From Rozella allomycis CSF55 (taxonomy: Eukaryota): DNA of 64,000 nt. The stretch is taken from positions 1 to 64,000 of the forward strand of contig KE561054.1 of assembly GCA_000442015.1 (NCBI GenBank). The letters are read 5' to 3'. The notes under the pieces were generated by a model, which made no database searches, was not told the DNA's origin, and worked only from the letters and a program-made list of their open reading frames with translations. The translations under genes were made by a program, and so were the position numbers. Of this stretch, positions 14,612 to 45,345 are shown one piece after another (positions within the stretch are counted from its first letter, which is position 1; every line of letters starts with the position of its first letter).

Positions 14612-17600
14612 TTATTGAAAGTAATCATCACGATCGTAGGCTTCAGCCACTTGCAAGTCGGTGAAATTCATAAAATGGAATGGACGATGAGATTCGTGGT
14701 AAAAGTCTTTTGGCGTGTCAATTTTGAGAGAATAAGTGAGTTTGTCGGACATGTTGACGCCTTGAAAGTTGTAATTCCAACTACCGTTTTCAGGGACCAT
14801 AAAGTAACCAAAGAATCTATCAGACAGGATCATTTGAGATTTTTCATAGAGAGAAGGATTGTAACCTTTTAAGGGAAATGAATAGAAATACCTGGAGGAT
14901 GAGTGTTTGTTGAATAGAGCAAATCTTTGTTTTCTCTTCCCCATTCATAGCCCGCAGTTGTTAATTTGTAAGAGACTAGAGAGCATGAACCAGGAGTGAA
15001 AGAACAGGTGATGATGCACGTCTTGTCACCGTTCCAGTTACCGTCAGAGTTGTGAATGAATTTCGAGTGCTGAATAATGTCGTGGGAAGACAATTGGCCA
15101 AGTTCATTTGGTTGAGTGTGAATCCAACCCAACGGTTCTAAATTTTCATGTAGAGGAATTAAGTCAGGCAAATGAACTACTTGATGTGTACCCCATTGAG
15201 GAACAAGAGCAATACATTTAATTTCTTTAATTTGAGGATTATCTTTCGGACTGGATCCAAAAATAAATCTAAATTAAAGATTGGAATAATCTTTACCCAT
15301 GCACAATAGTTCTTAGATCAGAAATTGTGATAAATTTCTTTAATAAATTTTTGGGGAAAACAAAAGTGTAACCCTTGTCGGATAGATCATCAGAATTAAC
15401 GAAAATATTTCTAGTCCTCAAGACTAAATTTGAACAAGAAATGGCTCTAATTCTCCAATCAGTTTTAGAAGCGAAAGAACTTGTTTCATAATTAGAAGTT
15501 GTTGTTGTGATTAATTGATCACCATGAACGTTTGTTGTTTTAGTTGTTACTGCAGTTAGTTGAGATTGTTCTTTGCCCTTTAATTAAACAATGTTATTTA
15601 AATTACTTGTTTTTCAACATCAATTATTTGTTGTCTTTGTTGAGTTGGAGCAGCAATTTCCATTCCAAGAATAATATCTCTAATTTCAGCTTGTGTTAAT
15701 GAAGTAATTGAAACATTATTCTTCTTTCCAAAATCATTCAAAATCAAATCTTTCAATTCAATCTATTAATGAAATTTAAATAAAAATACTTCAACTTTGA
15801 TCCAATCATCATCAGATAAACTTGGCCAGATGTGATGAGGTTCAGTAATAACAGTTCTATCTGGTCTCAATATAATCTTTGTCTTTTCTGAATTAATATG
15901 CATAGAACGTAACACAAGAACAAGTCTACTAAATGCAGTATAACTACTAATGCTCTTTAACCAATCATCATATAAACTATTATATTATTTAAAAGATTTT
16001 TCTACTTGAATAAAACCATTTGAGGTTCAGTGGCTTTTAAGATTAGATCACCAAATTTCTCAATCTTTAAGCAAGCTTGAAATGGTAATTGCAATTCAGA
16101 ACCTTTAATTAATATTTGAAATCTTTGATACCTTTGATTTATATTTGAAATATTTGATACCTTTGATGATAATGTTTGGAAAATCTAATAAATGAACTTC
16201 TAAAGGATCCAACATTCCTTTTCTAGTGACAATAATTTGCTTTGGTTGTTCTTCAACTGGTAGAGATCTAATCAAAGCAGCAACTTCTTCAGCTGTTTTC
16301 CACTTGGCCAATTGACCCAATCTCTTTTGACCAGCCCACACACTAGTATGAATAATCTTTAAGAATAATTGACCAGTTCTTGGATTAAAAATGAAAATAG
16401 CTCCATTAATTGGTTTTGTTGTTAAATTGCCTTCAAATGTTTTATGGATTGTCACTCTGTACACATTTGTATCATCAACAAACCAAATCACTTGATTGCT
16501 AAACAATTCTCCATAATTCTGACTATTCAAATATGGTTCAATTGGTTCAGATGAATACAATTGCAATCCTTTTCTTATTCTCTCTCTTAACACATAGAGG
16601 GCTGGTGAAGCTTTCATTATCTTTGCCATTGCTTGTTGAACCAATGGTTTCATTCCTGGAAACCAATTGCCATAAGCAGAGTACATATTATAACACAAAT
16701 CAATTGAAATCAACAATCCAGTTGGTGATGGATAAATACCTATTAATGGATTAAAATAACAACATCTTACCTAGCATTATGTGAAATTGCTTCTATTTAC
16801 CTATAATTAAACAACACTAATACTATTTACCTATAATTACACAACATTAAGATCATCTTACTCATGTTGTCTGTCGTGTAGTCTAAAAATTTGGCTCTGG
16901 AATATCTTTCAATATCATGAGANCAATTTAAATAATATCATCTTACCTAGCATTATGTGAAATTGATACTATTTACCTATAATTAAACAACACTAATACT
17001 ATTTACCTATAATTAATCTAATATCATCTTACTCATGTTGTCAGTCGTGTAGTCTAAAAATTTGGCTCTGGAATATCTTTCAATATCATGAGAATCAAAA
17101 TCACCCCATCTCAATTGAACATCCAACCAATATTTCTGACTCGTTATTCCATCAAATGAATCTCTTGAATCATACAACAATGATGGTTTGCTAACATTCC
17201 ACTTGTACGTTGCAAACAACAATATATCAGCACATGAACTATTAAATACTTTCAAAAATAGATTACCTGTTCATTTTGTATGATTTTCTTGGATGAATTG
17301 TTTCTTTTTGANCCATTACAAGCATAATTACCTGTTCATTTTGTATGATTTTCTTGGATGAATTGTTTCTTTTTGAACAGTTTCTATTTCCAATGCATCC
17401 ATCTCTTGATCAAACACTTGACACAAATCCATAACAACAGACTCGTGAATCTTTTGCCACAAATGAGCTCGAAATATTTGAATTAATGAAATCTTCAACG
17501 TCGGTATCTTTCCATGCATAAATATACCTATTCTATTTCAAATTAAACATTATTTACCTGTCAAGTCTAATTGAACTTGAAATCCAATGTAAACACTAGC

Positions 17601-44200: not shown

Positions 44201-45345
44201 GATTTGGATGGATTGTAAATGAAAGATTAATTAATTAAAAATAGATCATTGGAAGCTATTTGTGAATTGAAGCCATTTCCCACAGTGTTTGCTAGGGTTT
44301 CTCCAGAGAACAAGTTGACGATAGTGAAAGCTCTTCAAAAGAACAACGAGTGTGTAGCCATGACAGGTAAGAGGGTTTAAGTAGTTTAAATTAGGTAAAG
44401 GGGTTTAAGTTAAAATATAAAAAAGGCGATGGGGTTAATGACGCTCCAGCTATAAAGTGCGCAAATGTTGGAATTGCTATGGGCATCGCTGGGACTGAAA
44501 TCACTAAACAGGCTGCAGACATTATCTTGTCTGACGATAACTTCACAACAATCGTTTCTTCTATTAAACAGGGAAGAAGAGTTTTTGATAATATTAACAA
44601 ATTCATTATTTATCTTTTAAGCTGCAACAGCGCTGAAATTTGGGTCGTTCTCATCTCAGTTCTCTTCAGCCAAAAATCACCTTTGAAACCCATGAACATT
44701 TTATGGGCAAACATCATCGCTGACATTCCACCTTCAATGTCTCTCGGCGTTGAACCTTTTGAACCTTCAATCATGATGCGCAATCCAAGAGACCCTTCGC
44801 TCGGTATTCAACTATTCTTTAATCCATCTAGGCATCCTCACAAGGAAAACAACCTTTATCATTCTATCGCAAAGTAATTCTCTCTTTTAAAATTACCCAC
44901 AAGGTCTCATCATCGCTATTCTCACCTGCTGCGGCTACCTCTACGATATGCCCTCTCCTTTTGATAACACTGCCACATACATTAGAACTTCTGACACTTT
45001 TGCTCTACTAACTGTTTCTCAGCTTATTTTAACTTTTCTGTCGCGCTCGGTAAATGATTCCGTCTTTTCTACAAACTTTTTTTCTAATCCTTGGCTAATC
45101 TTTTCTGTTTTCTTGTCTTTCGCTCTTTTGCTATTCGGTCATTACACACCTTGTAAGTTTAATTAAATCTTTTTAATAGATGTTAATGACTTTCTTACTC
45201 TGGCACCGCTAAGTCAAATGGCTTGGATTAAAATTGGTAATGTTTTAATTTCACTCTCATAGCTATTGCCTCTATAATTGTTGTCATCTATTCTGAGCTA
45301 ATGAAGCTCTACTTTAGACAAAAGAGTAAAAGAGTTGAAGGGTAG
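41262..45345 (+). CDS. Type II P-type cation (Ca2+/Na+) ATPase (start uncertain)
   Basis: [55 protein letters not shown]. Confidence 0.93.
41637..41749 (+). other. Compound intron: 4 stacked mini-introns (28+28+28+29 nt)
   Basis: GTAAGTGAGATTAAAACTTTTTAGAAAG x2, GTAAGTGTGATTAAAATTTTTTAGAAAG, GTACGTGTGATTATTTTGAGAGAATAAAG; frame restored. Confidence 0.88.
42337..42392 (+). other. Compound intron: 2 stacked mini-introns (29+27 nt)
   Basis: GTAATGTAGAGATAACTAATTTATAATAG|GTAATTCATTATTGCTACTCTTTAGAG; restores KANK-ALEAL. Confidence 0.88.
44367..44425 (+). other. Compound intron: 2 stacked mini-introns (28+31 nt)
   Basis: GTAAGAGGGTTTAAGTAGTTTAAATTAG|GTAAAGGGGTTTAAGTTAAAATATAAAAAAG; restores MTG-DGVND. 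Confidence 0.9.

Follow-up and report, generated by a model that had tools for sequence, protein, structure and literature searches.

Head-to-tail chains of ultra-short intron units in two genes of Rozella allomycis

Introduction

How are introns of 56 to 122 nucleotides (nt) built, and how are they removed, in genes whose other introns are about 28 nt long? The question is raised by a 64,000-nt stretch of the Rozella allomycis CSF55 genome (assembly GCA_000442015.1, contig KE561054.1, positions 1 to 64,000; hereafter the window, to which all coordinates refer). In it, the PRP8 gene contains three long introns, of 56, 122, and 58 nt, and a P-type ATPase gene three more, of 113, 56, and 59 nt. 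Each consists of 2 or 4 units of 27–31 nt. From sequence analysis we propose that each long intron is probably a chain in which complete U2-type mini-introns, each spliceable on its own, follow one another head to tail and are parted only by zero-length exons. R. allomycis has been reported to have 34% G+C within a set of fungi whose intron medians run from 29 bp upward (PMC8042348), and a Rozella gene with two introns of ~30 nt has been described (PMC6349667).

Results

Six long introns divide exactly into whole units

Both genes reach further than the original prediction had drawn them, PRP8 to about 14618 and the ATPase gene to about 45330, and both hold additional single introns. The ATPase is of type II, its top profile matches being PMR1-, ENA-, and SERCA-type. 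The genes, with the evidence for each, are as follows.

14618..22488, minus strand: PRP8 gene, about 15 intron positions, three of them chains (Pfam families of homologues; tblastn of three related open reading frames)
41330..45330, plus strand: P-type ATPase gene, 13 intron positions, three of them chains (profiles, homologues)

The six long introns, named here by gene and length, were found at the places and with the lengths first described for them, and their exact division into 2 or 4 units is confirmed. All 16 units begin GTA and end AG with zero bases between neighbors, as had been claimed, and the internal junctions (10/10) read [A/T]AG^GTA, where the caret marks the boundary between units. 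Units are listed from unit 1 onward, with lengths in brackets.

PRP8_56, 17786..17841, minus strand: units 17814-17841 (28) and 17786-17813 (28), identity 0.70; joins ..GGVEG to ILEH..
PRP8_122, 16740..16861, minus strand: units 16831-16861 (31), 16801-16830 (30), 16771-16800 (30), and 16740-16770 (31), units 3 and 4 being at background identity (0.54–0.62); joins ..TDNMS to IYPSP..
Second allele of PRP8_122 with the same exon end, 16924..17100, minus strand: ends at the N at 16923
PRP8_58, 16103..16160, minus strand: units 16132-16160 (29) and 16103-16131 (29), identity 0.88; joins ..PNIIIKG to SELQ..
ATP_113, 41637..41749, plus strand: units 41637-41664, 41665-41692, and 41693-41720 (28 each) and 41721-41749 (29); unit 1 equals unit 2 exactly, and units 3 and 4 are 91% and 67% identical to units 1 and 2
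ATP_56, 42337..42392, plus strand: units 42337-42365 (29) and 42366-42392 (27, ends GAG), identity 0.50, equal to background; joins ..EIKANK to ALEAL..
ATP_59, 44367..44425, plus strand: units 44367-44394 (28) and 44395-44425 (31), identity 0.65; joins ..AMTG to DGVND..

The second allele of PRP8_122 contains units 2, 3, and the start of unit 4, and it keeps every AG^GTA junction; its unit 1 is 26 nt long against 31 nt in the first allele, a difference of 5 nt.

The chain structure exceeds chance. We generated artificial intron-like sequences that matched the chains in length, began with GTA, and ended with AG, and asked whether they could be cut into GT..AG pieces of 24–38 nt. This succeeded for 1.2–3.9% of sequences of 56–59 nt and for at most 1 in 10,000 of those of 113 or 122 nt. 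A bare scan of the window for two abutting GTA..AG units returned 18 chains, some of which overlap, whereas shuffled sequence gave 5.5 on average; exon context is therefore needed to call a chain. One apparent two-unit chain, at 62280-62338 (minus strand) in a POLR3C-like gene, was rejected: it is a real 28-nt intron followed by coding sequence that starts GTA and meets an AG 31 nt on. Mimics of this kind mean that scans lacking exon evidence over-call chains.

The units interrupt conserved proteins

Comparison with homologues and profiles shows the chains to be non-coding interruptions of conserved proteins. As references for PRP8 we took 80 metagenome loci whose match to the exon lying between two of the chains covers its full 192 residues. 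A motif search found the start of this exon in 76 of the 80, and ..DYTTDNMS (or a close variant) directly precedes it in frame in all 76; ..PNIVIKG-SELQ.. continues in frame across the PRP8_58 position in 75 of these 76 loci, and ..GGVEG-ILEH.. is contiguous across the PRP8_56 position in 73/80.

The ATPase gives a corresponding picture. Before ATP_56, the profile TIGR01523 has reached position 107 at the exon end, and position 108 follows only after the first nine residues of the next piece. The second unit of the chain accounts for these nine residues and is therefore non-coding; positions 107 and 108 abut only with both units removed. Across ATP_59, TIGR01522 runs from 593 through a split codon to 595. 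Each of the 11 full-length ATPase homologues aligned to the window abuts across both ATP_56 and ATP_59. Six of the 11 also abut across ATP_113, at the same residue; the other five leave 13–63 residues unaligned, in a poorly conserved stretch. Homologues thus run unbroken across the six chains, so the units are not coding. Homologues and profiles are contiguous across the motifs that the flanking exons had originally been read to form (NMS-IYP, VEG-ILE, and MTG-DGVND). Products of partial removal run into a stop within 30 codons in 41 of 42 cases, and, with one exception taken up in the Discussion, only complete removal keeps the frame open.

The first ATPase exon (41330-41635) encodes a conserved 102-residue N-terminal domain with 91 homologues, many of them N-terminal in proteins of 970–1200 residues, for which we obtained no family name. 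A 295-residue database protein, P0361, is identical to this exon and 98% identical to the second (window 41330-42336). It joins the two exons as ..FMEE-E-RECV.., unlike the join predicted from the window, and it terminates exactly at ..EIKANK, where ATP_56 starts. No single splice of the window reproduces P0361; it may represent another allele, or a current gene model in which both chains were handled wrongly.

Units match the single introns in length and signals

We curated 36 single introns by eye from nine genes (PRP8, ATPase, GBF1-like, NFS1, and five others), with support from homology or open reading frames where available. All 36 are 26–31 nt long. This narrows the range of 24–32 nt first reported for simple introns, and the unit lengths (27–31 nt) fall within it. 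The ATPase intron at 42635 measures 26 nt and ends GAG; the one at 42840 was tried as a 38-nt intron and rejected, as profile spacing and homologue coordinates give 26 nt. Two further genes served for comparison.

28800..32958, minus strand: GBF1/Sec7-like gene, seven single introns of 27–31 nt and no chain
48636..50068, minus strand: NFS1-like cysteine desulfurase gene, three single introns of 26, 29, and 28 nt

The resemblance extends to sequence. Like the units, all 36 single introns start GTA; A stands at +4 in 81% of both; and the 3' ends (TAG or AAG), the C content (5–7%), and the profile at +4 and -3/-4 are as in single introns. In length, ends, and composition, the units are thus shown to be indistinguishable from the organism's single introns. 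At the 42 curated positions in the window there is no undivided intron longer than 31 nt, and the claim that every long intron is a concatemer holds for all six introns above that length that could be verified there.

A gene model restricted to GTA..AG introns of 24–33 nt placed introns at 81 positions and yielded long proteins with no breaks (1319 residues for the GBF1-like one); as the range was imposed, the only conclusion it allows is that short introns are sufficient. With a flat prior on intron length, dynamic-programming gene finders proposed many long introns, and every proposal inspected (in GBF1, NFS1, SET, GTPase, RB-like, POLR3C, and Rer1) resolved into short introns or none. A 46-nt GT..AG segment at 55937-55982 (minus strand) overlaps the stop codon of its own open reading frame, and splicing it gains nothing. 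Ultra-short introns were found in none of the 80 metagenome PRP8 loci, which thus give no comparative test of the chains; 14 of these loci have inferred introns, with 25 gaps in all, two of which are alignment artefacts (-1 and -2 nt) while the others measure at least 43 nt.

One single intron, at 44093-44120 (28 nt), holds a perfect internal 12-nt tandem duplication (Tandem Repeats Finder, 44095-44117). Small duplications thus occur inside single introns as well, without taking them out of the 26–31 nt range.

Neighboring units probably descend from tandem duplication

The original prediction did not address where the chains come from. Four of the six are reported by Tandem Repeats Finder with a period equal to the unit length.

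16101-16167, PRP8_58: period 29, 2.3 copies, 92% matches
16793-16850, PRP8_122 units 1 and 2: period 30, 92% matches
17779-17843, PRP8_56: period 28, 2.3 copies, 78% matches
41634-41733, ATP_113: period 28, 3.6 copies, 95% matches

With the shared ends stripped, units of the same chain are 0.50–1.00 identical (mean 0.70), against 0.55 ± 0.08 for 1065 unrelated pairs (Mann-Whitney p = 5e-6). By the evidence of their sequence, then, the chains are tandem duplications, in register: the match between period and unit length, together with the identity within chains, argues that they grow by in-register duplication and that their copies differ greatly in age.

The exon borders carry a related signal. 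The upstream exon ends in AG at 5/6 chains and at 8/36 single introns (Fisher p = 0.007), and either AG before or GT after the intron is found at 6/6 chains and 13/36 single introns (p = 0.005). In PRP8_58, the first unit and the upstream exon finish with the same 7 nt, and the repeat reaches 7 nt into that exon; elsewhere the suffix shared by exon and unit measures 3 nt (ATP_113), 2 nt (three chains), or 0 nt (one chain). We infer that this bias toward exon-final AG and the 7-nt overlap are what a duplication across the exon-intron junction would be expected to leave.

Units were not significantly enriched as permuted copies of flanking exon sequence (2/52 with z>2). At ATP_59 (44367-44440), both units start GTAA(G/A)(A/G)GGGTTTAAG, which resembles the downstream exon start GCGATGGGGTTAATG (coding for DGVND). 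This hints that the ATP_59 units contain a copy of exon sequence; they gave the top score in the permuted-copy test, at a level that is not significant (z 2.1–2.4).

Tandem repeats also occur in coding sequence, at 6448-6509, 43315-43413, 43723-43773, and 43939-43976. Their periods (27, 21, 15, 9, and 18) are all multiples of three, the coding counterpart of the in-register filter that we propose for introns in the Discussion.

Gene content and assembly of the window

The window is a gene-dense nuclear eukaryotic stretch with the standard genetic code and ~34% G+C. Its genes include PRP8, the P-type ATPase, a GBF1-like Sec7 factor, NFS1, Rer1, VIT1, ribosomal protein uS5/S2, and a Ras-family GTPase, among others. 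The nearest named proteins to uS5 are 77–85% identical and nearly all from early-diverging fungi (Mucoromycota, Zoopagomycota, chytrids, and Blastocladiomycota). A transfer RNA gene at 14422-14495 (plus strand), the sole Rfam match in the window, lies on the strand opposite PRP8, ~120 nt past its stop codon. The region 35319-39607, between the GBF1-like and ATPase genes, appears repeat-rich and poorly assembled: it contains part of a MULE transposase (35900-36439, minus strand), 2.8 copies of a 67-nt repeat (35319-35507), and a cluster of 12 single Ns.

There are 21 single Ns in the window assembly. Six of them (16923, 17312, 20064, 23899, 25268, and 43286) sit between abutting duplicates of 33–173 nt with ~90–98% identity, and these duplicates are two alleles stacked by the assembler. 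The stacked alleles shift or break reading frames in PRP8 (three places), a GTPase gene, a helicase gene, and the ATPase gene (one place). PRP8 is split in this way at 16923, 17312, and 20064, and the ATPase gene carries its allelic duplication at 43286. At N 16923, introns are visibly more heterozygous than exons.

Discussion

We have described six introns that are built entirely of units resembling single introns. Two matters remain to be weighed: whether each unit is still used by the spliceosome, and what this would say about permissible intron length.

Divergence between neighbors bears on the first. At five of the ten internal junctions, the units on either side are at background identity (0.50–0.67, the 95th percentile of unrelated pairs being 0.68); all five junctions nonetheless still read AG^GTA, and the units they part remain 27–31 nt long. 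Were it possible to remove 56–122 nt in one step, one would expect drift in sites and lengths and the presence of undivided long introns, of which none is seen in the window. That diverged units keep their splice sites and lengths suggests that each is still used, and it fits a spliceosome with a narrow length window. This length window and the conservation of inner sites together lead us to favor, with fair confidence, a serial removal of the chains unit by unit.

We propose the following mechanism. A chain would arise by tandem duplication of ~26–31 nt spanning a splice junction, such that the copied end of the exon, ..AG, becomes the 3' site of the new intron and the length of the duplication becomes the length of that intron. 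Given an AG at the end of the upstream exon (or a GT at the start of the downstream one), the copy would have GT...AG as its borders and would be a second intron at once. Only in-register duplications of a spliceable length would leave the gene working, and hence only those would be seen. The spliceosome, for its part, would pair a 5' site only with a 3' site ~26–31 nt away. Units would be excised one after another, in any order and, given their size, probably not simultaneously; each excision would recreate AG^GT until the last joins the true exons.

A stronger form of this proposal is that the spliceosome has a hard ruler of ~26–31 nt, that introns can grow only in whole quanta through junction-spanning duplications, and that the resulting chains are cleared serially across zero-length exons. 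We advance it tentatively, at somewhat less than even confidence. The original prediction had posited a ruler of ~28 nt and quantized intron lengths; the structural part of that idea stands, as 6/6 chains consist of units whose lengths lie within the single-intron range.

Several observations weigh against these proposals. The proposals derive from one 64-kb window, and the six chains are confined to two of its genes, so that introns both long and undivided may occur elsewhere; beyond the homology-backed genes, moreover, the intron census depends on crude gene models. Four chains hold young copies, whose inner sites would persist without selection, and the two alleles of PRP8_122 resemble each other too closely for their conserved junctions to show constraint. 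The motif YTRAY occurs in 18/31 single introns and in 5/16 units; there is only a weak A-rich stretch before AG, and no clear branch motif in each unit. Finally, the second unit of ATP_56 (27 nt), if it alone is retained, leaves the frame open, the sole exception among the 42 partial products.

Introns of 56–122 nt are routinely spliced in other fungi, and the chains might likewise be removed in a single step, as ordinary introns spliced from the first GT to the last AG by way of the last branch site, while the inner sites would be unused leftovers of recent duplication. The young copies in four of the six chains, with identities of 0.70–1.00, agree with this. We nevertheless consider it unlikely: the inner sites are exact at 5/5 junctions between units at background identity, and if such lengths were tolerated, decayed chains and insertions should have yielded some undivided introns above 31 nt at the 42 curated positions. 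A mixed use of sites, in which any 5' site pairs with any downstream 3' site and removal proceeds by varying single- and multi-unit steps, follows from the structure: every junction is AG^GT, and all pairings are in register. It would leave the chains insensitive to which sites are chosen. Such mixed use, too, seems to us improbable, because with 36/36 single introns at 26–31 nt, pairings over 55 nt or more should be inefficient at best.

AG^GT junctions are classical proto-splice sites, which raises the possibility that the units were formed by a small mobile intron inserting copies of itself at AG^GT, also beside existing introns. Introners of this general kind are a known route of intron gain (PMC13685798). 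Here we regard such an origin as very improbable: across the 1065 pairs compared in the window, units of different chains and single introns stay at background identity (mean 0.55, maximum 0.79), high identity is confined to neighbors in the same chain, and there are no terminal repeats and no target duplications beyond the 2–7 nt shared with the exon. Least probable of all is an assembly artefact, with the assembler having piled up two alleles of a single intron or repeats that it failed to resolve. Stacked alleles are indeed present at six Ns, and the copy number of the two identical 28-nt units of ATP_113 is probably not to be trusted from a short-read assembly. The genuine artefactual duplications, however, include exon sequence and disrupt reading frames, while each chain keeps exact register with the splice sites; two alleles cannot give four-unit chains, both alleles of PRP8_122 have the same unit order, and most units are too diverged to be alleles.

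How, then, do separately removed units compare with known systems? The chains would bring together two known processes, splicing at zero-length exons and the gain of introns through duplication, in a form both extreme and regular. Recursive splicing at zero-length exons occurs at the ratchet points of Drosophila (PMC8605326). Spliceosome profiling has also revealed stepwise removal in fungi, across a zero-length exon in the 336-nt intron of S. pombe SPNCRNA.445 and in the 375-nt intron of C. neoformans BOT1, which is split into 210 + 165 nt (bioRxiv 10.1101/226894 and 10.1101/224170); the original prediction, which had linked such splicing to very long animal introns, was too narrow in this respect. 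As in those cases, a 3' site lies directly against a 5' site (..AG^GTAAG..) within the intervening sequence, here at 10/10 junctions. The known cases differ in having one or a few sites within introns of 336–375 nt (fungi) or many kilobases (animals), for which removal in one step is also possible. In the chains, the entire intervening sequence consists of minimal introns, up to four of them, of 27–31 nt, that are duplicates of one another; here, stepwise removal is what we infer.

Tandem genomic duplication of a segment containing AG^GT is a known model of intron gain, the Rogers model, with later examples. Tandem duplication is likewise named among intron-gain mechanisms elsewhere (PMC13685798). 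The chains share with this model that a segment bounded by AG^GT becomes an intron of the length of the duplication, with the exon's AG probably supplying a splice site. They differ in that the copied segment is mostly existing intron, such that the new intron adjoins the old with no exon between, and in that a duplication of ~28 nt suffices, because the minimal intron is so short.

Stwintrons also comprise more than one U2-type unit, removed in consecutive reactions, and small duplications of splice elements have been proposed as their origin (PMC7138796). In a stwintron, however, the inner intron is nested within the donor, branch, or acceptor element of the outer one, and the order of removal is fixed (PMC7138796), whereas the units of a chain abut, each with its own complete ends, and none would require another to be removed first. 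The earlier remark that fungal stwintrons are nested and not side by side agrees with this definition, under which the chains do not fall. Nor, within the window, do they resemble introner-like elements, which are present as many similar copies at unrelated positions.

Uniformly ultra-short introns are known from other eukaryotes: ~25 nt in Paramecium and Nyctotherus, 15–16 nt in Stentor, a median of 27 nt in Dicyema, and 22–27 nt in myxobolid myxozoans (PMC13644364, PMC6543705, PMC2222250, PMC5014332). The introns in the window share with these a very narrow length range and reduced signals (GTA...AG), implying a tight length requirement. The difference is that the cited passages on those organisms make no mention of longer introns built from whole units, and that the lineage of the window is an early-diverging fungal one, which, Microsporidia apart, is not among the ultra-short-intron groups named in them. 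In the literature searched, which did not extend to supplements and subscription papers, we found no description of stacked mini-introns.

The chains make two old questions testable in one organism: what intron lengths a spliceosome allows, and how introns are born. The allowed length window is apparently only about six bases wide, and the chains would be the remnant of longer inserts that were filtered through it, which points to a physical ruler between recognition of the 5' site and of the branch or 3' site. Natural examples of tandem duplication across AG^GT are few. Here, copies ranging from identical to fully diverged lie side by side, and the birth and aging of introns can be read from them. 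There is also a practical consequence, as genes with chains would be mis-annotated by any gene finder built on a minimum exon length or on one class of intron length; P0361 may be an instance of this. If the ruler reading is true, R. allomycis would offer a natural system that displays directly both intron gain driven by duplication and a spliceosomal limit on intron length.

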